From an uncultured Rickettsiales bacterium (GTDB taxonomy: Bacteria > Pseudomonadota > Alphaproteobacteria > Rickettsiales > CANDYO01), in assembly GCA_964550685.1 (NCBI GenBank), contig CAZJZY010000001.1, positions 2,155 through 66,154 of the forward strand: a DNA stretch of 64,000 bases, given 5' to 3'. The notes under the pieces were generated by a model. The model was not told the origin of the DNA. It searched no databases and saw only the letters and a list, made by a program, of their open reading frames with translations. Of the stretch, positions 3,494-21,827 are shown one piece after another. How positions within the stretch are numbered: the first letter of the stretch is position 1; each line of letters begins with the position of its first letter. Both the position numbers and the translations under genes were made by a program.

Positions 3494-4553
3494 GGGAAGG
3501 TACTTTTATAGAATAGACCATATTCGGGCTCTTGCCGCTTTTATGGTTTTTGTATGGCACTTTTTGCATTCCGCCAATGGTTATCCTATTAAATTTAATG
3601 ATACTCCATATATATTTCTGCTGTCAATATTTGATGAAGGACATACTGGGGTTGCTCTTTTTATGACTTTAAGTGGTTATTTGTTTGCAAAATTAATTGA
3701 CAACAGAAAAGTAAATTATTGGTTATTTATTTATAACCGAGTATTAAGGTTACTGCCTTTGCTTGCCTTGGTGACCTTGATTTTAGGGGTGCAGAATTTT
3801 ATTAATGGTTATGGCGCTTCAGATTATTTTTTATCTATTTTAACAGGTCTAGTTTTGCCAACTTTACCGAATGGAGGATGGTCTATAACTGTTGAATTTC
3901 ATTTTTATTTAATTCTGCCAATGATATTATACGCTGTTAGAAAAAATAAAAGTTATCTGATAGGCTTTCTAATCCTAATTTTAATTTTTAGACTAATTTT
4001 ATGGTATAAATTAGGAGAAATACAGAGTTTATCGTACTGGACTATTATTGGTAGAATTGATCAATTTATATTTGGTATATTAGCATTTCATTTAAGAAAC
4101 TATATCAAGAGGTGCCATTTTTTAGTTATCACTGTTTTTTTAGCCTTTTGTTTCTTGTATTACCAATTTGATATATTGGGCGGCTTTTATAATTATCCAT
4201 CTTATCCTTCTGTTAGTTCATTATGGATAATAATGCCAACTATTGAGGCTTTTACTTATGGGTTAGGTATTGCTTGGTATGTTGAGTCTTTTAGTAATTT
4301 TTCAAACAATAAATTTTCTATTTTTTTTGCAGAGCTTGGAAAGTACTCTTATTCTATATATTTATTGCATTTTTTTGTTGTGTTCAGAGAGGCTAGTTTT
4401 GTACATGAACATGTTATGAATATGTCCAATCTTTATATTGGAATTTTATGGGCAATGTTTTTTTATATCTTAATGTGGCCGATTGGTTATTTGAGTTTTA
4501 GATATATAGAAAGTCCTTTTCTAAAATATAGAAAAAAATATATTCTTATTTAA
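3456..4553 (+). CDS. acyltransferase family 3 integral membrane O-acyltransferase
   Basis: RIDHIRALAAFMVFVWHF N-terminal motif and many hydrophobic segments across 365 aa. The start is uncertain; an alternative GTG lies at 3480. The ORF overlaps the end of ppdK. Confidence 0.75.
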   Translation: MRQQRLVYVKSSEGRYFYRIDHIRALAAFMVFVWHFLHSANGYPIKFNDTPYIFLLSIFDEGHTGVALFMTLSGYLFAKLIDNRKVNYWLFIYNRVLRLLPLLALVTLILGVQNFINGYGASDYFLSILTGLVLPTLPNGGWSITVEFHFYLILPMILYAVRKNKSYLIGFLILILIFRLILWYKLGEIQSLSYWTIIGRIDQFIFGILAFHLRNYIKRCHFLVITVFLAFCFLYYQFDILGGFYNYPSYPSVSSLWIIMPTIEAFTYGLGIAWYVESFSNFSNNKFSIFFAELGKYSYSIYLLHFFVVFREASFVHEHVMNMSNLYIGILWAMFFYILMWPIGYLSFRYIESPFLKYRKKYILI

Positions 4554-4607: not shown

Positions 4608-5672
4608 GTGTTAAGCGGTATGAGTAGTAATAAATTATTCAATTCTAGCTGGAAAAGCTGTTTTTATAGAGTTTCAGTTGTGTTCCTTATTCTTGCTTTA
4701 GGGGTGTTGACTTACGTCATATCAAAAAAGAGCAAAAATGTTATAAATGAACTTAAGCTTGATAGGGGCGCCTCTATTCAGGAGATAAAAGAATATATTA
4801 AGATGGAGAGCGAGTTTATTGTAAAAAATATAAAAAAAAATATTCCTTGTGAGTTCTTTAGTGAAGCAGTAGGAGTTTGTAATGCCGAATGCACGTTAAC
4901 ATCTTATGAGACTATTTTAGCTCAGAGTTTCTTTGATATGGTATCTCCTAGTATGAAAGTTTTAGAGATCGGTCCTTATGTTAACCCTAGCTTGAAGGGA
5001 GCTAATGTTAAATATTTTGATATTTTAAGCGCTGAAGATATAAAAAGCCAAATACTTAATGAAAAAAATGAGGCTCTTAAGAATGGCGTTAGTAAGGACG
5101 CTGATTTATCAAAGGTGCCCAATATAGATTATGTCCATCCAAATGGAGATCTTAGAATAATAAAAGAAAAATTTGATGTAGCTTTTTCTAGTCACAATAT
5201 AGAGCATCAAATAGACCTTGTTGCTCACTTAAATCAAGTGGCAGAATTGCTAAATTCAGGAGGAAAATTTTATCTTGTTATTCCCGATAAGAGGTATTGT
5301 TTTGATCATTTTATACCAGAGTCACCTCTTTCTGATATTATAGGTAGTTATTATAGCGCTATAAAATTGCATCAGCTTGACACTATATTGGCTATGAGCT
5401 GCGAAACCACACATAATAATCCTAAGCTTCATTGGCAAGGTGAGCACGGACAAGTAAAAGGGCGCAATAGTTCTTGCTATGTTGATTCTATAAAAGATTT
5501 TAAAAATAATAGTGGGTATATTAACGCTCATCGTTGGAGGTTTACACCGCAGAGTTTTGAGTTCATAATTAATCAGCTTAATGAGATGGGATTAACAACT
5601 TTAAAAGTAGAAAAAGTTTATATGACTCAAGAGAATACGGCTGATTTCAAGGTTATTCTATATAAACCTTAA
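4608..5672 (+). CDS. membrane-anchored class I SAM-dependent methyltransferase-like protein (paralogue 1)
   Basis: N-terminal hydrophobic segment FYRVSVVFLILALGVLTYVI. Motif I-like VLEIGPYVNPSL, acidic post-I KYFDIL, and FSSHNIEHQIDLVAHLNQVAELLNSGGKFYLVIPD resembling Methyltransf_11/23. The likely real start is ATG at 4620. Confidence 0.5.
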   Translation: MLSGMSSNKLFNSSWKSCFYRVSVVFLILALGVLTYVISKKSKNVINELKLDRGASIQEIKEYIKMESEFIVKNIKKNIPCEFFSEAVGVCNAECTLTSYETILAQSFFDMVSPSMKVLEIGPYVNPSLKGANVKYFDILSAEDIKSQILNEKNEALKNGVSKDADLSKVPNIDYVHPNGDLRIIKEKFDVAFSSHNIEHQIDLVAHLNQVAELLNSGGKFYLVIPDKRYCFDHFIPESPLSDIIGSYYSAIKLHQLDTILAMSCETTHNNPKLHWQGEHGQVKGRNSSCYVDSIKDFKNNSGYINAHRWRFTPQSFEFIINQLNEMGLTTLKVEKVYMTQENTADFKVILYKP

Positions 5673-5751
5673 ATTAAGCAATAATTTTAGTTATTGATTT
5701 ATCTAGATAATTATATAAACTGTGGTTTTTTAGCTTCTATTGGACAATATT

Positions 5752-6741
5752 ATGCTTCGTAAGATCTTTTGTTTTTTTTTAATTGCCTCATTGCTTGTTA
5801 ATGCTGGATTGATTTTGCGTATGCAAAGTCATGATCGGGATTTGGATGCTTGTAATCTAGTGAATACTGAGTTAGAAAAGTCTCTAAATATATCTAGATC
5901 ACTTGAGGATTCTAAGAGTGGGCAACAAAAAATCCACTATTTCCAAAAGTCTTTTGGAGATAATGGAGCTTTTGGAGATTCTATAAAATCTTGTGAGTTT
6001 ATGTCTCGTTCTGATTTTCTTGGAGCGATAGGTGAAGATTTAAAAGTTCTTGAGATTGGGCCATACTACTCACCTTCTCTGAAGGGCGCTAACGTAAAAT
6101 ATTTTGATGTGTTAGATAAGGGGGGGCTAGAAAAAAAAGCAGCTATTGATAATCTATCAATTGAAAATATTCCTAATATAGATTATATCCATTCTGGCGG
6201 CGACATGGGGATTATTAAAGAAAAATTTGATGTGGTATTTTCTAGTCATAATATTGAACATCAAGTGGATTTAGTAAGGCACCTTAATCAAGTTTCTGAT
6301 GTATTAAAAGAAGGTGGTAAGCTTTATCTTATTGTACCTGATAAGCGTTATTGTTTTGATCGCTTTATTCCTGAAACCTTACTTTCTGAGGTCCTCGCAA
6401 ATCATGAAGAAGGAAGATATAGGCATTCATTAAGTACTATTCTAGAAGCTTGTGAAAGCACTTCTAATGATCCTATTGGACATTGGGAAGGCCGGGCTTC
6501 GCCTTTGTTATCTGGATTGGGCTGCTATAACACCCGTATTAAGGCTTTTGAAGATGCAAAAGGTGGCTATATTGATGCGCATAAATGGCGGTTTACGCCC
6601 CAAAGCTTTAGTTATATTATTAATAGTTTAAATGAATTAGGGCTGGTAGATTTGAGAATAGAAAAAATCTTTTGCACTCAGCCTAATTCAATAGAATTTT
6701 CTGCCATTTTGGTTAAATATAAGGATAATAAAAATGATTAA
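5752..6741 (+). CDS. membrane-anchored class I SAM-dependent methyltransferase-like protein (paralogue 2)
   Basis: Colinear with 4608-5672: VLEIGPYYSPSLKGANVKYFDVL, FSSHNIEHQVDLVRHLNQVSDVLKEGGKLYLIVPDKRYCFD and AHKWRFTPQSF. N-terminal anchor IFCFFLIASLLVNAGLIL. ATG at 5752. Confidence 0.5.
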   Translation: MLRKIFCFFLIASLLVNAGLILRMQSHDRDLDACNLVNTELEKSLNISRSLEDSKSGQQKIHYFQKSFGDNGAFGDSIKSCEFMSRSDFLGAIGEDLKVLEIGPYYSPSLKGANVKYFDVLDKGGLEKKAAIDNLSIENIPNIDYIHSGGDMGIIKEKFDVVFSSHNIEHQVDLVRHLNQVSDVLKEGGKLYLIVPDKRYCFDRFIPETLLSEVLANHEEGRYRHSLSTILEACESTSNDPIGHWEGRASPLLSGLGCYNTRIKAFEDAKGGYIDAHKWRFTPQSFSYIINSLNELGLVDLRIEKIFCTQPNSIEFSAILVKYKDNKND

Positions 6742-8092
6742 TTTTATAAACAAAAACAAGAAGTTCTTCGTAATATGGGGGCTTTTAATAACGGCAGTAC
6801 TTTTTATTTCTTGGGAATGCATTGTAATCTATAAGAATAGCAATAAGCAGGCTTTAATCAGCGATGTTGAAAGTTATGATAGATTCTTTTGGAATGAATA
6901 TTATTCAAAGAACACCATTAAGCAGTCTTATAAAATTATAATTATAGGTCCTGAGCCTACTCCTAATGGTCGGGTGGTTTCAGATGAGACTTTGATTTTA
7001 AGGATAGTTAGGGCTGCCTTAAATCTGAACTGGGAAATTAAATTTTATGATACTTTGATGGGAAAAGAAGATGAAGTTATAGATTTTAATCCGGATTTTA
7101 TCATTTCTACTATTCCAAAGTGGAATATGTCTTCGTATATTCCCTTGCCTTATAAAATATATTCTTTTATTCCTCTTCAGTATTCCACTTTTTTCTCAGT
7201 AAGGGTAAAAGAGCCTTCTATAAACTATAGCTCTTTAAAATATATATATAATGGTTTTATGCCTCAAATATTTACTGTTTCAGATGGTCTTATACTAACA
7301 GATAAAAAGTTCTTGTTATTTAAAGAATTATTTGAAGCGAAATCAAAAAATAAATTCCATGGTATAGTTGGTTATCCTGGAGTAGATTATTTTGATTATG
7401 ATGACTCTGTTGAGGCTAATAAAATAATTTATTATGGTATAAATTGGGATTCACTTAGAAGTAGCAAGACATATTTGGATTTATACGATAACCTAGCAGA
7501 GAGAGGTATAGTTGACTATTATGGGCCATTCATTGGATGGATAAATAACTATAGAAATGGTTGGAAGGGTTTTTTAACTTTACGTAATAAAATAGATGAT
7601 AAAGGCCAGCCGATAGTTGCGAAGGATGATATTGTGTTGGAAACAATAAAGCAGCATGGTATTGTTTTAATATTGCATTCTGATGTTCACTTTGATGGGG
7701 ATATTCCTAGTTTAAGAGAGTTTGAGGCTGCAGCTGCTTCGTCTTTAATTATTAGCGATGAGTTGCCTTTTGTGCGTGAAACTTTTGGAGATAGTGTACT
7801 ATACATAGAGGTAAAAAACAGAACGACAAAAGAGATAGAGGATCAAATAGTTAAGCATTATGAATGGATTAAAGAAAATCCAGATAAAGTTAAAGAGATG
7901 ACAAAGAAAGCTCATAGCATATATAAGGAGAAATTTACTTTAGAGAAGTTGCTTGTAGATATAGCTCATATGCATGAGTCAGTATTAAGAGATCAGTCAG
8001 TCAATGATATTCATTTACAAAAGAATCTTAAGCTTGAGACCCACCTTAAGGTTACTGATACTGTAATTCCAGCTGGTCGTGCCTCATATTGA
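6734..8092 (+). CDS. anchored CgeB-like glycosyltransferase (Glyco_trans_1_2-type C-terminal domain), paralogue 1
   Basis: N-terminal anchor FFVIWGLLITAVLFISW. C-terminal LREFEAAAASSLIISDELPFVRETFGDSVLYIE followed by a helical tail, as in CgeB-family GT-B domains. The start overlaps the previous stop (ATGATTAA). Confidence 0.55.
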   Translation: MINFINKNKKFFVIWGLLITAVLFISWECIVIYKNSNKQALISDVESYDRFFWNEYYSKNTIKQSYKIIIIGPEPTPNGRVVSDETLILRIVRAALNLNWEIKFYDTLMGKEDEVIDFNPDFIISTIPKWNMSSYIPLPYKIYSFIPLQYSTFFSVRVKEPSINYSSLKYIYNGFMPQIFTVSDGLILTDKKFLLFKELFEAKSKNKFHGIVGYPGVDYFDYDDSVEANKIIYYGINWDSLRSSKTYLDLYDNLAERGIVDYYGPFIGWINNYRNGWKGFLTLRNKIDDKGQPIVAKDDIVLETIKQHGIVLILHSDVHFDGDIPSLREFEAAAASSLIISDELPFVRETFGDSVLYIEVKNRTTKEIEDQIVKHYEWIKENPDKVKEMTKKAHSIYKEKFTLEKLLVDIAHMHESVLRDQSVNDIHLQKNLKLETHLKVTDTVIPAGRASY

Positions 8093-8115
8093 TATGTTAA
8101 GGATGTAAGAACCCA

Positions 8116-9336
8116 ATGGTTATAATAAAAAAAATAAAAGTGATTATAACCATATGTTTGATAGTCATTGCAGTTTTTTTTGCTCTATATTTTTTTAAAA
8201 AAACTATTCTTCCTAACTACAAATTCGATCAAGCCATAAAAGAGGCTGCAAAAATTCCAGACACCCACTGGGATGAAAAATATCAGGATATGAAAATCAA
8301 TGATAAATATAAAGTTGTTTTAATATCAGCTGATGGTGGTGAATATAGCTATGTAGAGAATTTTAAATATGCTGCTGAAAAAATGGGGTGGGAAGTTCAA
8401 ATATATTATAATCAAATTTTAGGACATGAAAAAGAGATCTTAGATTTTGATCCAGATTTTATTTTACTCACTCCCTATGCTGCTCCTATCATGGATATGA
8501 AAATAACCGCTGATAGATCTAAAAAATATCTTTTAAGCTTTATATCTTTTCAAGGCTTAAGAGATGAACGAAAATGGCTCTCAAAGAAAGACATTTACCA
8601 AATTATTGATAATGGATTTAAGCTTTTTGTTTCTAGATCACATGCTATATTAACAGCAGCTCACGAAGTGGATATTTATCGAGAAATCTTTGAAAAAATG
8701 GGCAAGCCATTTAACGGTTTAAGGCTTTTGCCACTAACTCCTAAGTTTGTAAATGAGCCTGCAGAACCTAAAAACCTTATGTGGGTGGGTATGGGATGGG
8801 ATAATTTTCGTTCTTCTGAAAATTATACAAATTTCATTAGATCGCTCAGTCAAAATATTTCTATGAAAATTTATGGCTCGGCTGCAACTCTTTCAAGCTT
8901 TATAGATAGTTATGGAGGCTACATTCCTCCTGGTATAGAAAATATCAATGCCATAAGAAAAAATGGTATTTATCTGCTAACACATAGTGATTGGCACTTT
9001 AAGGGTGGAGAGCCAAGCATGAGAATATTTGAGGCTGCTGCCGCAAATGTTGTAATCATTTCAGATAAACATCCATTCGTTGTTAAGCATTTTGGTGATA
9101 GCTTACTTTATTTTGATAATGATGTTGCTAGTGAAGTTATGTACAACCAAGTTAAAGCCCATATTGATTGGATTAAATCTAACCCAGAAGAAGCCAAACT
9201 TAAAGCGGCACGTGCTCATCAAATTTTTCTAGAGAACTTTACTTTGGAAAAAGATTTGGTTAGACTTGCTAAGATGCATGAATATATCTTGCTGCAAGAG
9301 AAAAAAATGAATTTAGACTATAAGCTAGCTTATTAG
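8116..9336 (+). CDS. anchored CgeB-like glycosyltransferase, paralogue 2
   Basis: Colinear with 6734-8092: MRIFEAAAANVVIISDKHPFVVKHFGDSLLYFD and FTLEKDLVRLAKMHE. N-terminal anchor VIITICLIVIAVFFALYFF. Confidence 0.55.
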   Translation: MVIIKKIKVIITICLIVIAVFFALYFFKKTILPNYKFDQAIKEAAKIPDTHWDEKYQDMKINDKYKVVLISADGGEYSYVENFKYAAEKMGWEVQIYYNQILGHEKEILDFDPDFILLTPYAAPIMDMKITADRSKKYLLSFISFQGLRDERKWLSKKDIYQIIDNGFKLFVSRSHAILTAAHEVDIYREIFEKMGKPFNGLRLLPLTPKFVNEPAEPKNLMWVGMGWDNFRSSENYTNFIRSLSQNISMKIYGSAATLSSFIDSYGGYIPPGIENINAIRKNGIYLLTHSDWHFKGGEPSMRIFEAAAANVVIISDKHPFVVKHFGDSLLYFDNDVASEVMYNQVKAHIDWIKSNPEEAKLKAARAHQIFLENFTLEKDLVRLAKMHEYILLQEKKMNLDYKLAY

Positions 9337-9359
9337 CTTAATTTAAGAGCTTTAGTAAT

Positions 9360-10676
9360 ATGAAGAAATTTCTAAAAAAAATAGCCCTTCTAAGTGTTGT
9401 TATTATAATAATTATAGCTTGTATTTCCTTCTATAAAATCTGTTATAAAAACTATTATCTTACCGTCACTGGCATAGTAGAATATGCCGATGGTATTGGC
9501 AGACAAATAATTGACCTAGAAGATCTTATTGGCGATGAAGTGGAGATGAATACTACTGCTATAGTAAATACTAAGCAGTATTTGCCTGAAAGATTTAAAG
9601 AAATTATAAAGATAAAAAATAAAAAACCTGGTTATGTTGTTTTAAATGAATATTCTCTTTCTTTTGGGTTCCAAGAAGATAAGAGAATGCAACAAATTCT
9701 ATTTGATGCAGACAAAAATAGATTAAGAAAGTCATTTAATAGGATTCCAAGAGAAGAGCAAATTTTTATTAGCTACTCAATGTTTGAGTCAGATAGAATC
9801 CCGCAGCATTGGGTATATAGAATAAATAGTGAATGGGATATGGTAGTTGTACCAGATCAAAGTTTAGTAGATGTTTATATAAATTCTGGAGTGAAAAAGC
9901 CAATTTTTGTTGTCCCATTAGGAACAAATCTAGAAACGCACTTGAATGCTCCATTAAAAAAAGAAGCTGGCAAAATATTCACCTTTGCTAATTTTTCAGC
10001 TATCGAAGAAAGAAAAAATTTAATGAAATTATTAGAGGCATATCATAAAACTTTTAATGGCAATGATAAAGTGAGATTGTTGCTTTCTTCAAGACGGGAT
10101 GGTGGTAGCTACAAAGAATTAAAAGAATATATTCTAAAAAATAACGTTCAAGGTGTGGAAATTGATATTGGCACTAAGGACAGTAGGTTTTATAATTTTG
10201 CATTTGAAAATATAGATTGTTATGTTAGCCCTTCTAAAGGAGAAGGGTTTTCGGTTATTCCAAGAGAGGCTATGGCCAGAGGTATTCCAACAATTGTTAG
10301 CGATGCTCTAGCTCAAAAAACTATTGCTAACACAGGCTTAGTTAAAGTGGTTCCTGCTAATAAACTAGTTCCTGGTTATTATTCTCATGCCGATAAATTT
10401 ATTGGCAATTACTATGACATAGAAGTGAATGATTTAGCTGAAGCAATGCTTGAGGTTTATAAAAATTATCAAAAATTTTTAGATAATGCACCGGCGGCAA
10501 GATCTTGGGCAGAGAAAGGGCAATATAAATATTTAAAAGAAGAATATATCAATATGGTCAAGCCAAAGAAAATAATTCTTGGAGATAAGAATGAAATTAC
10601 AAAAGATTATTTAATGACCAACTCAAAAGAGCTGTATAATAAATGGAAACATTTAAAGGATAAAGGATTATTATGA
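9360..10676 (+). CDS. anchored glycosyltransferase family 4 (GT-B, Glycos_transf_1 domain), paralogue 1
   Basis: EX7E-type motif SPSKGEGFSVIPREAMARGIPTIVSD. N-terminal anchor IALLSVVIIIIIACISF. Confidence 0.75.
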   Translation: MKKFLKKIALLSVVIIIIIACISFYKICYKNYYLTVTGIVEYADGIGRQIIDLEDLIGDEVEMNTTAIVNTKQYLPERFKEIIKIKNKKPGYVVLNEYSLSFGFQEDKRMQQILFDADKNRLRKSFNRIPREEQIFISYSMFESDRIPQHWVYRINSEWDMVVVPDQSLVDVYINSGVKKPIFVVPLGTNLETHLNAPLKKEAGKIFTFANFSAIEERKNLMKLLEAYHKTFNGNDKVRLLLSSRRDGGSYKELKEYILKNNVQGVEIDIGTKDSRFYNFAFENIDCYVSPSKGEGFSVIPREAMARGIPTIVSDALAQKTIANTGLVKVVPANKLVPGYYSHADKFIGNYYDIEVNDLAEAMLEVYKNYQKFLDNAPAARSWAEKGQYKYLKEEYINMVKPKKIILGDKNEITKDYLMTNSKELYNKWKHLKDKGLL

Positions 10677-11395
10677 AAAGAATTATTGTTATATTATTGC
10701 TATTATTTAGCTTGCATGCTCAAGCATTATCAGTGACCTACGCAGTTACTGTTAGTACAGAAGCTGAAGAATTGAGAAGGCTTCTAAAGCAATTATCTAA
10801 GAATTTAGATGATGAAGACAGAATTTTAATCCAAGTTGATCAAGATAATCATTCTGAAGAAGTGATACAAGTCATTAATAAATTTGGTAGTAGCATTCCA
10901 GCCAATCAATATAAAGTTATCTATTACCCTTTAAATAAAAATTTTGCTGCTTTTAAGAATAATCTTCTAAAAAATGCTGGAAATAATGGTTTTATGTTTC
11001 AGCTTGATGCGGATGAGATTCTAAGCTTTTCACTGATGCAAAATTTGAAATATTATTTAGCCCAAAATCAGGATGTAGATTTGATAATGTTGCCAAGAGC
11101 TAATTATTATATCAATATGGAAGAAGATCAAGATTTTCAAGAAATGGACAAAACTCACTCAGATGAATTAGGAAGATTCAGATATCCTGATTTGCAAGGT
11201 AGAATTATTAAATTAGGTAATAAAAAACTAAGATATAATGGCGAATTACATGAAGGTATTCTAGGAGCCAAAAAAATAGTTACTATGCCACATACTGGCA
11301 AAAACCAAAGTTGGGATCTTATTCATATAAAAACTATGAAAAAACAAAAAATATCAGATAAGCTATACAAAGAAATAGAAAAGATTGTTAAATGA
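10673..11395 (+). CDS. glycosyltransferase family 2-like protein with signal-peptide-like N-terminus
   Basis: GT-A start SVTYAVTVSTEAEELRRLLKQL and DxD-type QLDADE. N-terminus MKRIIVILLLLFSLHAQA. ATGA overlap with the upstream gene. Confidence 0.6.
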   Translation: MKRIIVILLLLFSLHAQALSVTYAVTVSTEAEELRRLLKQLSKNLDDEDRILIQVDQDNHSEEVIQVINKFGSSIPANQYKVIYYPLNKNFAAFKNNLLKNAGNNGFMFQLDADEILSFSLMQNLKYYLAQNQDVDLIMLPRANYYINMEEDQDFQEMDKTHSDELGRFRYPDLQGRIIKLGNKKLRYNGELHEGILGAKKIVTMPHTGKNQSWDLIHIKTMKKQKISDKLYKEIEKIVK

Positions 11396-11396
11396 A

Positions 11397-12710
11397 ATGA
11401 TATTTCTTTTTAGATTATTTATATTAATATTTAGCGTTGTTGGTCAGGCGCAAGAACTAGAAGAAATCTCAGCTGAGGATTTCCTTACTAAAAATCCTTC
11501 TCCAGAACGAAAAGCAATCGTAAATTTTATAGTTCATCAATTTGATAGCAAGAGAGATGTAGCTATTACTCAGACCCAATTAGATGATGTGTGGTCTAAT
11601 GTGGCAGCTAGAAATAAACTTTTTATGATTAGATTCCAAATAGTAAATCAGAAATTATATGCTGATAGTTGTTATTTAGAGCATGATCATTTTATAATGT
11701 TGCTCAGATATCTTAATAATCTTGTAAGTAAGTATAAGATTAATGATTTAGATTTTATAGTGTATTCTGGTGATGATACTAATGGAAAAGATTTACTTAG
11801 TGATATACAACAAAAATTACCAACTTTTCTTCATTCTAAAGATTATAATGATCCATTTGAAAAAGATAGATTTTTATTTCCAGATTCATACCTAATCACT
11901 CCTCATTGGAATAATTTAATTACTAGGATAGAAAATGCAAATAATCTTTATTTATGGAGCAATAAAATTGAAAAAATATTCTGGATAGGTAAAACTACAG
12001 GTAATGGAGATATGAAATATAATATGGATAATTTTGCTAAGCTGCCACGTTTGAATTTAGTAATTCTATCAAAGCTTTATCCAGACTTAATTAATGCTAG
12101 ATTTAATTCATATTATAATTTCTCTGATAATAAGAGTGGCACTGATTTAAAATTAACACTAGATCTTTTATTTGGCGGAATTTCACCAAGTGTTTCTGAA
12201 GAAAATCATTTAAAATATAAATACCTAATTTCTATTGATGGGAACACTTGTGCTTGGATGAGAGTGCCTTGGATTATGCTTTCAAATTCAGTTCTAGTTA
12301 AGCAAGAGACTTCAAAAATGGAATGGTTTTATCCTGCGATGAAACCTTATATACATTATATTCCAGTGGATGAAAGTTTAACCAACATCTTTCAAAAATT
12401 TGAATGGATGAAAGATCATGATAATGAACTAAAGGAAATATCAAATAATGCCCAGAGTTTTATTAAGAATAATTTAATGCCAGAACATATTGATGCTCAC
12501 TCTGTTATTATTTTAAATGAATATCATAACTTACATAAAGATACTAAAATAATCGCCACTCTAACTTCAGCTGATGAGTTGCTAATGAAAATAAATGCTT
12601 GGGAAGAATCCGAAGCTGAAAAGAGAATGGGGATCAGAAAATCATTAAAAATAAAGTTTAAAAAAATCTTTAAGAATATTGTTGATAAAGTGAGATCTTT
12701 ATGTTCTTAA
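11397..12710 (+). CDS. GT90 / CAP10-domain (POGLUT-like) glycosyltransferase, paralogue 1
   Basis: KYKYLISIDGNTCAWMRVPWIMLSNSVLVKQETSKMEWFYPAMKPYIHYIPV...WMKDHDNELKEISNNAQSFIKNNL matches the GT90 core remembered from eukaryotic protein O-glucosyltransferases. Signal-like N-terminus MIFLFRLFILIFSVVGQA. Confidence 0.75.
   Translation: MIFLFRLFILIFSVVGQAQELEEISAEDFLTKNPSPERKAIVNFIVHQFDSKRDVAITQTQLDDVWSNVAARNKLFMIRFQIVNQKLYADSCYLEHDHFIMLLRYLNNLVSKYKINDLDFIVYSGDDTNGKDLLSDIQQKLPTFLHSKDYNDPFEKDRFLFPDSYLITPHWNNLITRIENANNLYLWSNKIEKIFWIGKTTGNGDMKYNMDNFAKLPRLNLVILSKLYPDLINARFNSYYNFSDNKSGTDLKLTLDLLFGGISPSVSEENHLKYKYLISIDGNTCAWMRVPWIMLSNSVLVKQETSKMEWFYPAMKPYIHYIPVDESLTNIFQKFEWMKDHDNELKEISNNAQSFIKNNLMPEHIDAHSVIILNEYHNLHKDTKIIATLTSADELLMKINAWEESEAEKRMGIRKSLKIKFKKIFKNIVDKVRSLCS
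11451..11510 (+). repeat. 60-bp near-identical segment shared with 12773-12832 (N-terminal regions of GT90 paralogues 1 and 2)
   Basis: Hand alignment gives 58 of 60 positions identical (caagaactagaagaaatctcagctgagga...tccttctccagaacga), while the flanking codons are much more diverged. Confidence 0.85.
12207..12337 (+). repeat. 131-bp highly similar segment shared with 13547-13677 (catalytic cores of GT90 paralogues 1 and 2)
   Basis: Hand alignment gives about 120 of 131 positions identical, including a 38-bp perfect run (acttgtgcttggatgagagtgccttggattatgctttc). Confidence 0.8.
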
Positions 12711-14038
12711 GTAGTTTTAAATTTTATAGAACTATATTGATTCTTCTTTTGTGCTTTAATAAATTATATGCACAAGAACTAGAAGAAATCTCAGCTGAGG
12801 AATTCCTTGCTAAAAATCCTTCTCCAGAACGAGAGGAGATCATAAATTTTATAGTCCATCAATTTGATAATAAGCTGGAATCTGGCGTAACTCAAGAGCA
12901 GCTAGATAGTTTGTGGAATAATAACGAAGCTAGGCAAGAGTTTTTTATTTCTAGATTCCAAATAGTTGATAATAAGCTTTATGCCGATAGCGTTGATCTA
13001 AATTTTCCTTTTTATATAGAGTTTTTAAACTATCTACAAAAACTTTTGTACAGCTATAAAATACCAGATGTAGACTTTATTTTTCATATGAAAGATGGGA
13101 TTTTTGCTAACCAAAGTTTAAGAGAAAAATTTCTTAATATTCCGTCATTTTTAATGTCAAAAGATCTAAAAGCATTTTATGAAAATGATAGGCTATTATT
13201 ACCTGACTTATTTATGATGGGCAGTAATTGGTATGAGCTTAAAACAAGAATAGAAACTTCTAATAATATCTACCCTTGGAGTGATAAAATAAATCAAATA
13301 TTCTGGCGAGGATTTACCACTGGCAATGGAGAGATGGAATATAGCATAGATAATTTTGATAAATTTCCTCGTTTAACGTTAGTCATGTTATCCAAACTTT
13401 ACCCTGATTTAATTGATGCAAAGTTTAATAGATTTAGTTTTGATAAAAATAAAAGCGGCGAAGATTTAAGATTAGTATTAAATATTTTGTCTAATGGTGT
13501 TCCTGAGTCAGAAATTGAAAAAACACAAACAATTCCTGAAGAAGATCATTTAAAATATAAATATCTGATTTCTATTGATGGCAATACTTGTGCTTGGATG
13601 AGAGTGCCTTGGATTATGCTTTCTAATTCAGTTCTGGTTAAACAAGAAACGTCTAAGATGGAATGGTTTTATCCTGCAATAAAGCCATATGTACATTATG
13701 TCCCCGTCAATGAAAGATTAACTGACTTATTATCTCAAATTCAATGGATGAAAACTCACGATCTAGAATTAGAAAAAATATCAGCTAATGCACAAAATTT
13801 TGTTAAGAATAACTTGATGCCAGAACACATTGATGCATATAGTGTAATTATTTTGAATGAATATCATAAATTGCACAAGGGATCTAAGCTTATTCCAACC
13901 CTTCCTCCAGCAGAAGAAAGCTTCATAAAGTTAGAGGCTTTAAAAAAAAATAAATCTGAAAATAGTATGAGCATAGGGAAGAAAATTAAAAGATTTTTTA
14001 GAAAGATAAAACAAAGGTTTGAAAAATTATGCATATAA
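12701..14038 (+). CDS. GT90 / CAP10-domain glycosyltransferase, paralogue 2
   Basis: Same core as paralogue 1, with a near-identical DNA stretch. Signal-like N-terminus ending LYA/QE. Its start overlaps the upstream stop. Confidence 0.75.
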   Translation: MFLSSFKFYRTILILLLCFNKLYAQELEEISAEEFLAKNPSPEREEIINFIVHQFDNKLESGVTQEQLDSLWNNNEARQEFFISRFQIVDNKLYADSVDLNFPFYIEFLNYLQKLLYSYKIPDVDFIFHMKDGIFANQSLREKFLNIPSFLMSKDLKAFYENDRLLLPDLFMMGSNWYELKTRIETSNNIYPWSDKINQIFWRGFTTGNGEMEYSIDNFDKFPRLTLVMLSKLYPDLIDAKFNRFSFDKNKSGEDLRLVLNILSNGVPESEIEKTQTIPEEDHLKYKYLISIDGNTCAWMRVPWIMLSNSVLVKQETSKMEWFYPAIKPYVHYVPVNERLTDLLSQIQWMKTHDLELEKISANAQNFVKNNLMPEHIDAYSVIILNEYHKLHKGSKLIPTLPPAEESFIKLEALKKNKSENSMSIGKKIKRFFRKIKQRFEKLCI

Positions 14039-15303
14039 GAAAACTATTATTGTTTATATTTTTTATTCTTTGCAGTTTTGATGTATATGCATTAAAAGAT
14101 ATTTCTCCTGAGAATTTTATTGCAGAAAATTCATCATCTGAACGTAAAAATATTGTAGACTTTATTGTGCATCAATTTGATAACAAACTTGAAGATGGAG
14201 TTACTCAAGCTCAATTAGATAACATTTGGAATGACCTAAATTTAAGAAAAAATCATTCCATGGTTAGATTTCAAGTTGTTAATCAAAAGCTTTACGCTGA
14301 CACTTTTGATTTATACAATGATTGTTATGTTTATTATATTCAGAAGCTTGTTAATAAATATAAAATTAGGGATATAGATTTTATAATTTATGAAAGAGAT
14401 GGGATTAATTCAGATAAAGTACTTGGTATCCCAGCTTTTATGCCTGCTAAAAATTTAGATTCCATTCATGAAAAAGAGATATTATTATTTCCTGATCCAT
14501 ATATGGTTGTAGATTATTGGCAAAAACTGATTGAGAGAATAGAAGAAGCTAATACTAAATATCCTTGGAATAAAAAGATAAATAAATTATTTTTCAGAGG
14601 GTTTTTAACAGGAGGAAGCGATGATATAGACTCTCCCAATGTTTCACCTCGTTTAACATTATCTATATTATCAAAATTATACCCAGATTTAATTGATTCT
14701 AAGTTAACAGGTTTTCATAGGATAGTAGAATATAGTAATAATAAACATTCTATTGCGGATTTTTTGTTTGGACCAGGAACTCCGATAAACGAGCAAGAAG
14801 GCACTCTCTATAAAGCTAATCATGTAACAGAAGAAGATCATTTAAAATATAAATATATCATGTCAATTGATGGTAATACAGCCGCTTGGAGGAGAGTTCC
14901 GTGGATTATGCTTTCTAATTCAGTTTTAGTAAAACAAGAGTCTAATAAAATTCAGTGGTTCTATTCGGCCATGAAGCCATATGTTCATTATGTTCCAGTT
15001 AATGAAAGGATAACTGATATATTTTTACAGCTTGAATGGATGAAATCTCATGATGCAAAATTACAGCAAATTTCACAGAATGCTCAAAATTTTGTAAAGA
15101 ATAATTTAATGCCAGAGCATGTTGATGCCCATAGCGTTATTATTTTAAACGAATATCATAAATTACATAAAGGTGCAGAGATTATTCCTACTCTTCCGCC
15201 AGTAGAAGAGACTATAGCAAAGATTGAGGTTCTAAAGCCTAAGATGGGCAGAAAGAAGCGACTTAAAAAATTCTTTAATGATCTAAAAGATGAATTCTTA
15301 TGA
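14029..15303 (+). CDS. GT90 / CAP10-domain glycosyltransferase, paralogue 3
   Basis: KYKYIMSIDGNTAAWRRVPWIMLSNSVLVKQESNKIQWFYSAMKPYVHYVPV. Signal-like N-terminus ending VYA/LK. It overlaps both neighbouring genes. Confidence 0.75.
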   Translation: MHIRKLLLFIFFILCSFDVYALKDISPENFIAENSSSERKNIVDFIVHQFDNKLEDGVTQAQLDNIWNDLNLRKNHSMVRFQVVNQKLYADTFDLYNDCYVYYIQKLVNKYKIRDIDFIIYERDGINSDKVLGIPAFMPAKNLDSIHEKEILLFPDPYMVVDYWQKLIERIEEANTKYPWNKKINKLFFRGFLTGGSDDIDSPNVSPRLTLSILSKLYPDLIDSKLTGFHRIVEYSNNKHSIADFLFGPGTPINEQEGTLYKANHVTEEDHLKYKYIMSIDGNTAAWRRVPWIMLSNSVLVKQESNKIQWFYSAMKPYVHYVPVNERITDIFLQLEWMKSHDAKLQQISQNAQNFVKNNLMPEHVDAHSVIILNEYHKLHKGAEIIPTLPPVEETIAKIEVLKPKMGRKKRLKKFFNDLKDEFL

Positions 15304-16571
15304 AAAAGACCTTATTACTAATCTGCTCAATTATAGTTCTATTTTTTTTCTACAGAACCTTCATAAAGAATAACGATGTAACCATCTATGGAGTTATAAA
15401 CCAGGCGGACAGCATCGGTAGGCAGCCGCTTGATTTGATCAATATGCTTGATGGTGAAGTGGGTATGAACTTCATGGGCAAGGTGATTTCTACAAATGAA
15501 TTGAACTCCAAAGCTAAATCAGTGTTACAGAATTTTAACTTCAAAGTCGGTCATATATTTTTCTATGAATATGTATTTAATGTATGGGGTAATGAGGATT
15601 ATAAATTCAACCGCACAAAATATAAATTATTATCTAAAATAAATGGCTTAAAAAGATCTGAGCAAATCTGGATTGCATATTCAATGTTTGAGTCAGATAA
15701 AATTAGTCCTTTTTGGGTGGAAGAACTAAACAAAAATTATGACCTAGTGGTTTTACCTGATCCAAATTTAGTTTCTATTTATCAAATCTCAGGAGTCAAA
15801 ATTCCAATATTTGTAGTGCCATTATCTGTTAATTATGGCAAATCAATGATGTATCCTCTAAAAAGTGAAGCTCACCCCGTTTTTACCTTTGCTGATTTTG
15901 GCGCAATGATCGATCGTAAAAACACATTAAAACTTCTGCAAGCCTTTAAGGCTGCCTTCGGTAACAGAAAAGATGTGCGCTTATTGTTGAGTGCGCGTAT
16001 GAGTGAGGATTTACATAGACAAAAAATTATTGATTATATTGTTGATAACCAAATGGATAATGTTGATTATAATATTTCAGTTAAAGATAGTGAAACTTAT
16101 AATAAATTCTTTGATCAGGTTGATTGTTATATATCTTTATCTAAAGGGGAGGGGTTTGCTGTGCAACCACGCGAAGCAATGGCTAGGGGAATTCCTGTGA
16201 TTGTAAGTGATGCAATAGCTCAGAAAACTATTGCTGCTTCTGGATTAGTTAAGGTAGTAAATGCTAATGTTGCAAGACCAGCTTTTTACTATGACGGAAA
16301 AGCGATGATAGGTCATAATTTTGATGTAGAGATTGTAGATGCCGCAAATGCGATGCTTGAGGTATACAATAATTATCAGAAATATTTAGGTAATGCAGTA
16401 AAATCTAGAGAATGGGCAAGTCAATATACTTACGAAAATATTAAGCCATTATATGTTAGTTTAGTTAAGCCTAAAAAAGTTATTTTAGGTAAGGAAAATA
16501 AGGTAACTAAGGATTACTTGGAAACCACTTCAAAAGAATTATACAATAAATATATTATAAATAATAAATAG
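15300..16571 (+). CDS. anchored glycosyltransferase family 4, paralogue 2
   Basis: Colinear with 9360-10676: SLSKGEGFAVQPREAMARGIPVIVSDAIAQKTIA, and the same C-terminal tail VKPKKVILGKENKVTKDYLETTSKELYNK. ATGA overlap with the upstream gene. Confidence 0.75.
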   Translation: MKKTLLLICSIIVLFFFYRTFIKNNDVTIYGVINQADSIGRQPLDLINMLDGEVGMNFMGKVISTNELNSKAKSVLQNFNFKVGHIFFYEYVFNVWGNEDYKFNRTKYKLLSKINGLKRSEQIWIAYSMFESDKISPFWVEELNKNYDLVVLPDPNLVSIYQISGVKIPIFVVPLSVNYGKSMMYPLKSEAHPVFTFADFGAMIDRKNTLKLLQAFKAAFGNRKDVRLLLSARMSEDLHRQKIIDYIVDNQMDNVDYNISVKDSETYNKFFDQVDCYISLSKGEGFAVQPREAMARGIPVIVSDAIAQKTIAASGLVKVVNANVARPAFYYDGKAMIGHNFDVEIVDAANAMLEVYNNYQKYLGNAVKSREWASQYTYENIKPLYVSLVKPKKVILGKENKVTKDYLETTSKELYNKYIINNK

Positions 16572-20765: not shown

Positions 20766-21827
20766 CTAAAAGCAGTTGCTCATGTCATCAATAGATACAG
20801 CATTTACACAATAGTCTAGTCCAATAGATGTGTAGGTAATATCAGAATGACCATCATATTCATGACATGACTGAAAAATATCTAATAACTGACCGAAAGT
20901 CATTGATTCGATGTTTTTAGAAATTCTTAAACTATGGATATGTTTAGATTCAAGATCTAATAAACGTTCAGGAATATTTGTTGCAGTTTCGTGATAATGA
21001 GGTAATCGTTTATATGATTCTGTAATTTCTGCCGTATTAATAGATATAGTATGAAAACTATCCTTCAATACCTTTTTAAAGGTAGCATCAAATGTTGGTA
21101 GATGAAGCATTCCTACACTTACAACATTAACTTGTTCAGGTTGTTTCTCTAGATGATCTTTTATTTGAGCCATCATCATCATTTCTCTTTCATTAGAAAG
21201 AGCTGAAAACTTTAATACTTGGTTAAGAGGGTCTATTGCTACTAAGTTATAATTCAGAACATGTGAAGCAAACTGAAATATATTTATATCTAGATACAGA
21301 GCTGGTGATTCATTCGTTAATTCAGTAACTTGTTTAATATCTCTCTCTGCTAATAAATTGCTAGATAAATTATGATGCTTTAGGTATGTTAATAATAGAG
21401 CCTCTAGTAGAAAAGATTGTTGAGAATTGTGCATTTCGCCTAACAAAAGAATAATTGGTTTTGAGGTTTCTTCTATAGCTTTTTCAATGATATCGATTCC
21501 TTGTTTAAAGGTTGTCATTATAGACTTAATGGTGAGTGCATCATTGGAAGAAATTTTACTATAAGTTTCACATATATCTTGTTCAAATAATTTTATATGT
21601 TGAGGAAAAATACTAGCTTTAGGCAGATCTTTTAGAGTTTTTTCTAAAAAATAATTTGCTTTTGGACATAAAGAAGACTGAGTGTTAATTTTATTTTTAA
21701 ATGAAGTTAATTGTGATAGGGTTGTTGGGTAGTATGAATTATATATTTCATTGAAGATAAAAGAAAATGCAGCTCCTCCAATACTTCCTAAAGTAATGCT
21801 TGTAGTATAGCTTAATTGATTTCCCAT
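20766..21827 (-). CDS. hypothetical protein with Tiki/TraB/ChaN-superfamily-like motifs and an MGxxxS N-terminus
   Basis: Ordered motifs LLLGEMHNS, NEREMMMMAQI and VVSVGMLHLP resemble GxxH...RxxxM...GxxHL of that superfamily. The N-terminus is MGNQLSY. Confidence 0.45.
   Translation of the reverse strand: MGNQLSYTTSITLGSIGGAAFSFIFNEIYNSYYPTTLSQLTSFKNKINTQSSLCPKANYFLEKTLKDLPKASIFPQHIKLFEQDICETYSKISSNDALTIKSIMTTFKQGIDIIEKAIEETSKPIILLLGEMHNSQQSFLLEALLLTYLKHHNLSSNLLAERDIKQVTELTNESPALYLDINIFQFASHVLNYNLVAIDPLNQVLKFSALSNEREMMMMAQIKDHLEKQPEQVNVVSVGMLHLPTFDATFKKVLKDSFHTISINTAEITESYKRLPHYHETATNIPERLLDLESKHIHSLRISKNIESMTFGQLLDIFQSCHEYDGHSDITYTSIGLDYCVNAVSIDDMSNCF

Follow-up and report, generated by a model that had tools for sequence, protein, structure and literature searches.

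The locus

The window, the whole stretch of 64,000 nucleotides that was analysed, contains three back-to-back open reading frames on the forward strand, and the starts and stops of neighbouring frames overlap (Table 1). The first product has 441 amino acids when read from a TTG, and 437 from the ATG at 11397 chosen in an earlier reading of the DNA without database searches (hereafter the sequence-only reading); the shorter form is P0003 of the protein database. The three products, called copies 1, 2 and 3, align over their full length with pairwise identities of 51-57%: copies 1 and 2 are 57% identical, and copy 3 is 51-53% identical to each of them. The repetition also appears at the DNA level, with a spacing of about 1.3 kb. 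Three tandem, colinear frames were what the sequence-only reading had described, and both the coordinates and the alignment agree with it; the core motifs that it quoted are found in the sequence.

The array is part of a co-directional cluster of 13 kb between 3456 and 16571, whose gene order is: O-acyltransferase, two methyltransferases, two GT1-like proteins, a GT4, a small signal-peptide protein, the three GT90 genes, and a second GT4. The small protein, of 240 amino acids, has no significant family match. No terminator-like site lies between cluster genes: one weak match, with a 6-pair stem, falls inside the frame 6734-8092, and the only strong one comes after pal. All 10 cluster proteins have an N-terminal hydrophobic segment, as do 5 of 40 other proteins of the window (Fisher p 3e-7); the orientation of the anchors in the neighbouring GT4, GT1_2 and methyltransferase proteins is ambiguous. 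Between 3456 and 16571 there are no genes for a flippase, a polymerase, an ABC exporter, an initiating transferase or nucleotide-sugar functions.

Table 1. Positions of the cluster genes and of the features of the three GT90 copies in the window
Feature	Position	Strand	Remarks
Acyltransferase_3 integral membrane protein, first cluster gene	3456..4553	+	Pfam PF01757, E 4.5e-25
Two SAM-methyltransferase-like proteins	4608..6741	+	each with N-terminal hydrophobic segment
Two Glyco_trans_1_2 (PF13524) proteins	6734..9336	+	N-terminal membrane anchors
GT4a glycosyltransferase	9360..10676	+	Pfam PF00534, E 3.8e-10; N-terminal anchor
240-aa protein	10673..11395	+	classic signal peptide ending in AQA; only sub-threshold GT2-like match
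GT90 copy 1	11385..12710	+	441 aa from TTG 11385; 437 aa from ATG 11397
Predicted Sec signal peptide, copy 1	11397..11450	+	MIFLFRLFILIFSVVGQA / QELEE
Copy 1 Asp130	11772-11774	+	counterpart of copy 2 Asp132
Copy 1 counterpart of Arg224	12048-12050	+	by alignment
Copy 1 counterpart of Arg301	12261-12263	+	by alignment
C-terminal tail, copy 1	~12582-12707	+	by likeness to copy 2
GT90 copy 2	12701..14038	+	445 aa
Predicted Sec signal peptide, copy 2	12701..12772	+	…LLLCFNKLYA / QELEE
Copy 2 Asp132, putative catalytic base	13094..13096	+	aligns with POGLUT2 D238, POGLUT1 D133
Copy 2 Arg224, diphosphate binding by equivalence	13370..13372	+	POGLUT1 R218, POGLUT2 R316
Copy 2 Arg301, diphosphate binding by equivalence	13601..13603	+	POGLUT1 R279, POGLUT2 R376
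C-terminal basic amphipathic helix, copy 2	13910..14035	+	residues 404-444, single helix in AF2
GT90 copy 3	14029..15303	+	424 aa
Predicted Sec signal peptide, copy 3	14029..14091	+	…ILCSFDVYA / LKDIS
Copy 3 Asp124	14398-14400	+	counterpart of copy 2 Asp132
Copy 3 counterpart of Arg224	14650-14652	+	by alignment
Copy 3 counterpart of Arg301	14893-14895	+	by alignment
C-terminal tail, copy 3	~15181-15300	+	by likeness to copy 2
GT4b glycosyltransferase, relative of GT4a	15300..16571	+	Pfam; N-terminal anchor

Family and fold

Copies 1-3 are paralogous GT-B-fold glycosyltransferases, predicted to be inverting, from the CAZy/Pfam family GT90 (POGLUT/CAP10 family). Copies 1, 2 and 3 match Pfam PF05686 Glyco_transf_90 with E-values of 4.2e-30, 2.9e-34 and 9.4e-34, or 105-119 bits versus a cut-off of 24 bits. 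A phmmer search of the PDB with copy 2 returns only human POGLUT2 (2e-28), POGLUT1 (1.7e-16) and Drosophila Rumi (1.5e-11), aligned over residues 83-392. The AF2 model of copy 2 (pLDDT 92.2) has a GT-B fold that superposes on the solved GT90 structures: Foldseek ranks POGLUT2 first (E 3.5e-22), gives 1.3e-19 for POGLUT1, and ranges from 3.5e-22 to 5.5e-18 over POGLUT2, POGLUT1 and Rumi, the next family being SdgB at 2e-4. Human POGLUT2 (KDELC1; PDB 9w47), with POGLUT3, is the best match in sequence (about 25-30% identity), and POGLUT2 is the best in fold (TM 0.65/0.62); POGLUT1 and Rumi (PDB 5l0r, 5f84) reach TM 0.78 normalised on POGLUT1, at 21% identity.

Membership in GT90 had been proposed by the sequence-only reading, along with a conserved N-terminal element and homology across the luminal ER enzyme. 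Pfam, phmmer and Foldseek bear out the first, and the profile and structure comparisons with POGLUT1 and POGLUT2 that it called for are significant; the element exists as RFQIVNQKLYAD, which pairs with HYQITKNRLYRE of POGLUT1, and the phmmer alignment covers nearly the whole catalytic unit.

Conserved donor side, divergent acceptor side

In the alignment of catalytic residues, the Asp and both phosphate-binding Arg are kept. Of 48 family members, 44 have Asp at the position of Asp132 of copy 2 and the other 4 have Glu, and Arg224 and Arg301 are invariant (48/48). Since these three residues are intact, copies 1-3 are probably active enzymes using a nucleoside-diphosphate sugar. The donor-side core is 75-81% identical among the copies, and the acceptor-side domain only 44-47%.

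The acceptor contacts of the animal enzymes are a different matter. In alignments of the copies and of the family, the EGF-contact residues F104 and R107 of POGLUT1 and F338 of POGLUT2 are not conserved: F102 of copy 2 matches F104 by coincidence, there being no Phe at this place in copy 1, copy 3 or the family consensus, and F338 aligns to S246 of copy 2, within a variable stretch. R310 and H353 of POGLUT2 are not conserved in the window copies either, and the sugar-stacking F278 of POGLUT1 is replaced. The glucose/xylose-binding turn G-V-A-A-S-F/Y-R is absent; the window has G-N-T-C/A-A-W-M/R-R, with one Trp inserted (GNTCAWMR, versus GTVAA-YR in POGLUT2). The copies end in …FEKLCI, …VRSLCS and …KDEFL, not in a KDEL-type ER retention signal, and neither Pfam nor the model reveals the filamin domain of POGLUT2/3 or any other extra N-terminal domain. 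These absences speak against an EGF-repeat enzyme of the POGLUT subfamily, and the EGF-type acceptor that the sequence-only reading had allowed is not supported by the comparison of contact residues and turn.

Proposed export and membrane tethering

Each copy starts with a signal-peptide-like segment, as the sequence-only reading had stated and as is also found in POGLUT2. By heuristic counts, copy 1 has an h-region of 10 residues, a net positive n-region, and a net charge of -5 in the first 15 residues past the h-region. Of the 105 family members with the anchoring motif, 103 keep such an N-terminus, with A or G at -1 in 94 of the 103 and a median presequence of 20 residues. The usual marks of a Sec signal (a positive n-region, an h-region of 7-15 residues, a small residue at -1 and a mature region that is not basic at its start) are all present by the same heuristic, and the GT90 N-termini resemble those of BamA, Pal and Skp, the window's own Sec substrates.

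At the other end, the copies carry a basic amphipathic helix, a bacterial feature that distinguishes them from POGLUT2, POGLUT1 and Rumi. Family tails have a mean maximal hydrophobic moment of 0.479 versus 0.382 in shuffles, and a mean net charge of +2.9. The chlamydial GT90 relatives have no such tail.

These termini bear on the side of the membrane where the enzymes work. WaaA, LpxK and LpxL are cytoplasm-facing LPS enzymes anchored by N-terminal helices, an observation that tells against export. The GT90 segment might likewise be an uncleaved anchor of LPS-core or O-chain glycosyltransferases that face the cytoplasm and use bacterial UDP-sugars: Leloir donors are cytoplasmic, some arrays abut waaA, the three LPS enzymes of these genomes also have N-terminal helices, and one chlamydial cluster includes genes for a UDP-glucose dehydrogenase and for a protein of epimerase/dehydratase type. 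However, the GT90 h-regions, 9-12 uncharged residues with a family median of 10, are too short for a membrane span; their n-region is positive, A or G stands at -1, and the early mature region has a net charge of -2 to -5, a charge pattern opposite to that of LpxK and LpxL, which have +3 after the helix, and to that of WaaA; and even the chlamydial UDP-glucose dehydrogenase has a 36-residue signal-like extension. We thus hold a cytoplasmic site of action to be quite unlikely.

Relatives and origin of the array

The sequence-only reading saw in the array an enzyme family that is host-derived or mimics the host and has been amplified threefold, with bacterial surface glycans or host glycoproteins as possible substrates. 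Taken as a POGLUT-like enzyme recently gained from a host, triplicated here and directed at EGF-like host glycoproteins, it has in its favour the likeness to POGLUT1 and POGLUT2 and a neighbour-joining tree, with fungal CAP10/Cxt1-type GT90 as outgroup, that sets the bacterial clade weakly inside a eukaryotic grade. The bacterial relatives argue against it. Rickettsiales MAGs supply more than 230 close homologues, and an exhaustive search yields a continuous series of bacterial-type relatives, from 447 down to 143 bits, all above human POGLUT2 at 103 bits; at least 149 representative clusters outscore the human protein. The duplications are older than this genome: the copies are closer to proteins of other genomes than to one another, as with P0002, which shares 79% identity with copy 2 and pairs with it in the neighbour-joining tree with a bootstrap of 100, and the loci of related genomes hold 1 to at least 10 tandem copies. 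With an array GC content of 29-31%, which matches the genome, and the POGLUT features that are missing, a recent host-derived triplication is largely refuted, and we regard that reading as very improbable.

The phylogeny that had been called for thus cuts both ways: a position deep inside a bacterial clade speaks against a host origin, and the weak eukaryotic affinity of the clade as a whole speaks for it. As a matter of tree shape, the nesting would fit a single transfer from a eukaryote long ago. The array belongs to an old, much-duplicated bacterial GT90 branch and is most likely not a gene lately copied from a host.

The clade of the array has so far been found only in one uncultured Rickettsiales lineage, known from MAGs. 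After Rickettsiales, Chlamydiota and Dependentiae supply its nearest named relatives. The eukaryotic GT90s stand clearly farther off, and of the groups sampled the Cryptococcus CAP10/Cxt1-type enzymes, of the same Pfam family and about 600-650 residues long, are the remotest, with 47-58 bits against the HMM of the Rickettsiales clade. The environmental Chlamydiota and Dependentiae proteins, annotated 'glycosyl transferase family 90', score 200-270 bits to that HMM at 33-37% identity. They likewise have signal peptides and occur as tandem pairs, in glycan clusters rich in signal-bearing glycosyltransferases and methyltransferases; they differ in length (about 370 residues), in their N-terminal motif PxWMxEQI..DLAPF, in the lack of the amphipathic tail, and in neighbours of GT17, GT47, NodZ and GH130 types. 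Literature searches on rickettsial or chlamydial GT90 found nothing, in line with the earlier remark that bacterial members are poorly characterised. One functionally studied bacterial protein, the apiosyltransferase of Xanthomonas pisi (PMC6193724), has a weak GT90 (pfam05686) similarity, e-19 over 55% coverage; it is likened to the array only through that paper's description of a small glycan operon in which it lies beside a GT2-like gene.

Genomic neighbourhood

In related genomes, the island downstream of glyS-PPDK keeps its position but varies in its genes: in locus L002, the orthologue of the second Glyco_trans_1_2 protein comes after a GT90 gene, and in L008, the GT4b orthologue comes after PPDK. 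Lipopolysaccharide genes are near several arrays. In L009 and L011, waaA is directly downstream of the GT90 genes, L010 has kdsB and an msbA-like gene near them, and the window has lpxK and lpxL 9 kb downstream of the array, with lptF/G also present. Other loci have no LPS neighbours, and the arrays of L008 and L010 sit among unrelated housekeeping genes. In a genome of 1.5 Mb, some proximity to LPS genes is expected by chance.

Proposed function

We propose, at roughly even odds (about 0.5), that the three copies are exported, membrane-tethered inverting glycosyltransferases with a common donor and differing acceptors, which act on an envelope glycoconjugate. Each enzyme would leave the cytoplasm by Sec and lose its signal peptide; the basic amphipathic helix would then hold it on the membrane surface in the periplasm, where it would add a sugar to an envelope glycoconjugate, most likely the LPS core or an outer glycan, or alternatively to an envelope protein. 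The paralogues would share donor chemistry, because their donor-side cores are so similar, and differ in acceptor recognition, because their acceptor-side domains are not; the array would therefore offer more than one specificity for linkage or acceptor. Against this proposal stand the closest homologues of known function, which act on proteins rather than on glycans, and the missing flippase, polymerase, ABC exporter and initiating transferase of the cluster. The periplasm of bacteria is not known to hold a pool of nucleotide sugars, which leaves a Leloir-type enzyme that has been exported without an obvious donor: the simplest proposal is a host-derived UDP-sugar that would reach the periplasm through porins.

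This donor problem would be solved if the enzymes left the cell altogether after Sec export, as effectors that O-glycosylate host proteins with the UDP-sugars of the host cytosol or vacuole, their arrays grown by a host-pathogen arms race. The nearest characterised relatives are indeed protein O-glucosyl/xylosyltransferases, those bacterial members that have a name belong to lineages associated with hosts (Rickettsiales, Chlamydiota, Dependentiae), copy number is volatile, one locus having 3 copies in one case and at least 10 in another, and the window encodes an ankyrin-repeat/DnaJ protein, a type typical of host-interacting bacteria. But a Sec signal peptide alone leads only to the periplasm, no outer-membrane secretion system is found in or near the cluster, and the EGF contacts are not conserved; the methyltransferases, O-acyltransferase and other glycosyltransferases around the genes suggest the assembly of a complex glycan, and the C-terminal helix suggests membrane tethering. 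We consider effectors unlikely.

Wider meaning

POGLUT1 and POGLUT2, the best-known members of the family of the array, are Notch-modifying enzymes of animals. If the effector reading were true, host proteins would be O-glycosylated and the supply of donor would no longer be a puzzle. A broader conjecture is speculative and rather unlikely: host-associated bacteria of at least three lineages, the uncultured Rickettsiales group, Chlamydiota and Dependentiae, may run a 'Golgi-like' extracytoplasmic glycosylation, in which sets of Sec-exported Leloir-type enzymes, namely GT90 arrays, GT4, GT17, GT47, methyltransferases and even a UDP-glucose dehydrogenase, would work in the periplasm or a host-facing compartment on nucleotide sugars supplied by the host. 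The GT90 part would go back to a single ancient gain of a POGLUT2-like gene from a eukaryote and would later have spread between intracellular bacteria.

The tandem GT90 genes

The sequence-only reading described three tandem genes of the GT90 glycosyltransferase family, and they are real, far beyond what chance would produce: the ORFs are intact, align end to end with 51-57% identity, and all match the Pfam model PF05686 (Glyco_transf_90) with E-values of 4e-30 to 3e-34, at a cut-off of 24 bits. A search of the NCBIfam models matched none of them. The start and stop codons of neighbouring ORFs overlap, and in DNA sequence the copies are 75-81% identical over their 300-nt conserved core. A phmmer comparison with all PDB sequences returns only POGLUT2 (9w47, 2e-28), POGLUT1 (5l0r, 1.7e-16) and Drosophila Rumi (5f84, 1.5e-11), in alignments that span residues 83-392. 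The structural comparison with POGLUT1 and POGLUT2 gives the same answer: the AlphaFold2 model of copy 2, built from a 48-sequence alignment (mean pLDDT 92.2, pTM 0.87), when submitted to Foldseek against the PDB, retrieves POGLUT2 (E 3.5e-22, TM 0.65/0.62), POGLUT1 (1.3e-19, TM 0.78 on the target) and Rumi (5.5e-18), the next family, SdgB, reaching 2e-4 only. With these matches, membership in GT90 is firm.

Pseudogenes or a chance run of ORFs are ruled out by the intact reading frames, the conserved catalytic residues and the existence of orthologues. Copies 1 and 2 share 90% identity over 105 nt at their 5' end (11448-11552 and 12770-12874), versus 81% in the catalytic core; since the first value exceeds the second, local gene conversion between these copies may have occurred.

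Features of the window, in window coordinates
Feature	Position	Strand	Remarks
Acyltransferase_3	start 3456	+	first listed cluster gene
Two methyltransferase-like proteins	starts 4608, 5740	+	
Two Glyco_trans_1_2 proteins	starts 6734, 8116	+	
GT4	9360-10676	+	
240-aa protein	start 10673	+	signal peptide
GT90 copy 1	11385-12710	+	ORF, 441 aa from TTG; 437 aa from ATG at 11397
GT90 copy 2	12701-14038	+	ORF, 445 aa
GT90 copy 3	14029-15303	+	ORF, 424 aa
Second GT4	15300-16571	+	
pal	start 16757		
ORF	20766-21827	-	353 aa, no Pfam match at the thresholds used
Retropepsin-like aspartyl protease	22166-22858	-	230 aa, PF13975/PF13650
ORF	26207-27355	+	382 aa, no Pfam match at the thresholds used
ORF	32041-33792	-	583 aa, no Pfam match at the thresholds used
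Sulfatase-family protein	38457-40361	-	634 aa
ORF	45866-46504	-	212 aa, no Pfam match at the thresholds used
GGDEF protein	46671-47399		
DnaJ-ankyrin protein	60541-61932	-	463 aa, N-terminal DnaJ domain, then multiple ankyrin repeats

Active site

The functional residues of POGLUT1 are taken from PMC5543122, and those of POGLUT2 from PMC13084666. The catalytic base, D133 in POGLUT1 and D238 in POGLUT2, aligns with D130, D132 and D124 of copies 1, 2 and 3, and of the 48 homologues 44 have D at this position and 4 have E. Both phosphates are held by R218 and R279 of POGLUT1, whose counterparts are R316 and R376 in POGLUT2 (PMC5543122, PMC13084666) and R224 and R301 in copy 2; the latter two are invariant (48/48). 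The alignment thus bears out the expected catalytic residues, and copies 1 to 3 are very probably active as inverting enzymes, with a nucleoside-diphosphate sugar as donor. Which sugar is donated cannot be read from the sequence.

The alignment argues against a place in the POGLUT subfamily of EGF O-glucosyltransferases: the EGF-contact residues F104 and R107 of POGLUT1 and F338 of POGLUT2 are not conserved in it, and the sugar-binding turn, G-V-A-A-S-F-R in POGLUT1, becomes G-N-T-C-A-W-M-R in the window, with an inserted Trp. R310 and the uracil contact H353 of POGLUT2 are not conserved in it either. Nothing speaks in favour of EGF repeats as the acceptor. Between copies, the donor-side core is 75-81% identical and the acceptor-side domain 44-47%: the paralogues may share a donor and recognise different acceptors.

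Distribution and age of the duplications

A word-indexed search yields 231 homologues; the best 120 of these are 45-79% identical, and the named entries among them are MAGs labelled 'Rickettsiales bacterium' or 'Pseudomonadota bacterium'. Two scans of the GTDB species representatives find uncultured Rickettsiales MAGs only (OZ245841, a complete chromosome of 1.55 Mb with four or more GT90 genes, CANDYO, JBASGW, CAYHIS, CAZVLF and JAZKAD), apart from one 'Janthinobacterium' MAG contig. That contig, L028 (JBPBQH010000206.1, 6.5 kb), carries a Rickettsiales-type GT90 fragment with 41% identity; it is binned as Janthinobacterium lividum, probably wrongly.

The number of tandem copies at related loci is two in L003, three in L008 and L011 (5483-9251), six in L005, and at least ten in L009 (2-12405). 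Since the arrays of L009 and L011 lie upstream of the same flanks, waaA-infA-maf-GHMP kinase, one and the same locus varies in the size of its array. In the neighbor-joining (NJ) tree, the window's copies are interleaved with sequences of other genomes, and copy 2 has an orthologue elsewhere, the database protein P0002 (79% identical, NJ bootstrap 100). The duplications therefore predate this genome, and the threefold amplification proposed for it is not supported as a local event.

The GC content of the array (29-31%) equals that of the remainder of the window, which, together with the depth of the clade, led us to reject a recent horizontal transfer. A search for DNA repeats that could drive phase variation found paralogue-level repeats only. 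Genes for a Cache/MCP chemoreceptor and for PAS histidine kinases in relatives (L011, 12811-14496; L008, 1-4488), and for a GGDEF protein in the window, raise the possibility that this lineage has undergone less reduction than classical Rickettsiales, or lives less strictly inside cells.

Relation to the eukaryotic enzymes

To our knowledge, GT90 is known almost entirely from enzymes of the eukaryotic secretory pathway, in Notch O-glucosylation, fungal capsules and plant cell walls. An exhaustive search of 1.84 billion representatives gives 7407 matches at E < 1e-3, 304 of them at E < 1e-30. The scores of the best 150 of the 7407 fall smoothly from 447 to 143 bits, all above human POGLUT2 (103 bits). 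The tier at 33-37% identity consists of proteins of about 370 aa with signal peptides, whose named members come from Rhabdochlamydiaceae, Simkaniaceae, Parachlamydiales, Candidatus Dependentiae and one 'Anaerolineae' MAG; a single one of ten intermediate relatives is named, a mite POGLUT2-like protein. An HMM of the Rickettsiales clade scores chlamydial and Dependentiae proteins at 203-272 bits, the mite protein at 219, human POGLUT2 at 139, human POGLUT1 at 98, chytrid GT90 at 68-79, algal GT90 at 65 and fungal CAP10-type proteins at 47-58.

A first NJ tree of 173 sequences has backbone bootstraps mostly below 20, and we therefore make no claim on the exact sister group. In a second one (332 columns, 200 bootstraps, thin eukaryotic sampling, root assumed on fungal CAP10-type proteins), all bacterial-type sequences form one clade, with a bootstrap of 36%, within a eukaryotic grade of chytrids, then POGLUT1 (74%), POGLUT2 (72%) and Tetrabaena. 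A single ancient transfer from a eukaryote to bacteria, followed by spread among host-associated bacteria, would agree with this weakly supported nesting. The host origin proposed in the sequence-only reading survives only as a possibility, in that ancient form: copies 1-3 are part of an old, widely duplicated GT90 clade of host-associated bacteria, and a recently acquired host mimic, for all the likeness to POGLUT2, is very improbable.

Gene cluster and topology

The triplet lies in a co-directional, tightly packed run of genes downstream of glyS and PPDK. There is no terminator-like site between the cluster genes; the only strong match comes after pal, and a weak one, with a 6-pair stem, falls within ORF 6734-8092. 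Inspection of the cluster for a sugar-nucleotide gene, an initiating transferase, a flippase, a polymerase or an ABC exporter found none. The position of the island is conserved in relatives and its content is variable: a GH130-like gene, GT90, GT4, GT4 and GT90 in L012, a GT4 in L008. Two related GT4 genes with N-terminal anchors bracket the gene of the 240-aa protein and the triplet, and their orthologues adjoin GT90 or PPDK in L012 and L008. Lipopolysaccharide (LPS) genes lie nearby at some of the loci: waaA immediately follows the array in L009 and L011, kdsB and an msbA-like ABC gene accompany the GT90s of L010, and lpxK, lpxL and lptF/G are present within the window.

All ten proteins encoded in 4608-16571 (two methyltransferases, two GT1_2, two GT4, the 240-aa protein and the three GT90s) have a single N-terminal hydrophobic segment, versus 5 of the 40 other ORFs of the window (Fisher p 3e-7), namely Pal, Skp, BamA, LpxK and LpxL. 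The N-termini of the GT90s, with an h-region of 9-12 residues, a positive n-region and an early mature region of net charge -2 to -5, follow the pattern of the genuine Sec substrates encoded in the window; LpxK and LpxL, which face the cytoplasm, have instead +3 after the helix. Among the members of the family, presequences have a median length of 20 aa, the predicted -1 position is A or G in 94 of 103 members, and a conserved (Q/E)ELKxI mature end directly follows it. Conventional LPS glycosyltransferases, facing the cytoplasm with an uncleaved anchor, would sit well beside the LPS genes and less well with these charges, and we regard them as quite unlikely. The neighbouring glycosyltransferases and methyltransferases have helices of 15-19 residues, and their orientation is ambiguous because positive charge flanks the helix on both sides.

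In the AlphaFold2 model, the Rickettsiales GT90s end in a single long helix of about 40 residues. This tail is amphipathic across the family (mean maximal moment 0.479, versus 0.382 in shuffles) and basic (mean net charge +2.9). Periplasmic PBP5-type enzymes have C-terminal membrane-surface anchors, which the tail resembles; the chlamydial relatives lack it. Secreted effectors acting on host proteins would share the export signal, and their kinship would be with protein O-glycosyltransferases; given the membrane-anchor-like tail and the unconserved EGF contacts, we consider such effectors unlikely.

Other genes of the window deserve mention. The DnaJ-ankyrin architecture is typical of host-interacting effectors, and the retropepsin-like protease is of a type known in Rickettsia (APRc-like). 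The sulfatase-family protein may be an LtaS/OpgB/EptA-like phospho-transferase, and so possibly another periplasmic envelope-modifying enzyme.

Chlamydial clusters

Chlamydial contigs have pairs of GT90 among other eukaryote-typical families. L013 (1083-16641) encodes a UDP-glucose dehydrogenase, two GT17, GH130, GT4, Methyltransf_21, two GT90, three GT4 and an ABC transporter; L014 (46-7349), a GT90-methyltransferase fusion of 571 aa, a GT47/RXYLT1-like protein, GT90, GT17 and NodZ. Nearly all have signal-peptide-like N-termini, including a 36-aa extension ahead of the Rossmann motif of the dehydrogenase. This pattern suggests that host-associated bacteria export entire suites of Leloir-type enzymes.

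Proposed function

The best explanation, to which we assign a probability of about one half, is that exported, membrane-tethered enzymes act on an envelope glycoconjugate. The GT90s would be exported by Sec and then tethered to the membrane, and their target would most plausibly be the LPS core or an outer glycan. A donor would be needed outside the cytoplasm, and it would be simplest to suppose that UDP-sugar of the host comes in through porins. Precedents exist in Rickettsia prowazekii, which reportedly takes up UDP-glucose, and in Chlamydia trachomatis, whose secreted glycogen enzymes are said to draw on host UDP-glucose within the inclusion. A lipid-phosphate sugar donor, considered as an escape from the donor problem, finds no support in the intact diphosphate-binding Arg pair.

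The NCBI label 'glycosyl transferase family 90' already stands on such MAG proteins, and searches of the literature on GT90 in Rickettsiales or Chlamydiae, on PF05686 in bacteria and on exported glycosyltransferases of Chlamydiae turned up nothing relevant and no study of these proteins. They belong to a large, unstudied bacterial radiation of GT90, with highly variable tandem arrays and secretion signals, named so far only from host-associated lineages, and the clade is a candidate for ancient gene transfer from eukaryotes to bacteria. Should these enzymes truly act outside the cytoplasm, they would challenge the rule that nucleotide-sugar glycosyltransferases are cytoplasmic in bacteria, and would hint that host sugar nucleotides are parasitised to glycosylate the envelope or host proteins. 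Should they be conventional envelope-glycan enzymes, they would still be a new system of surface-glycan diversification in poorly known Rickettsiales.
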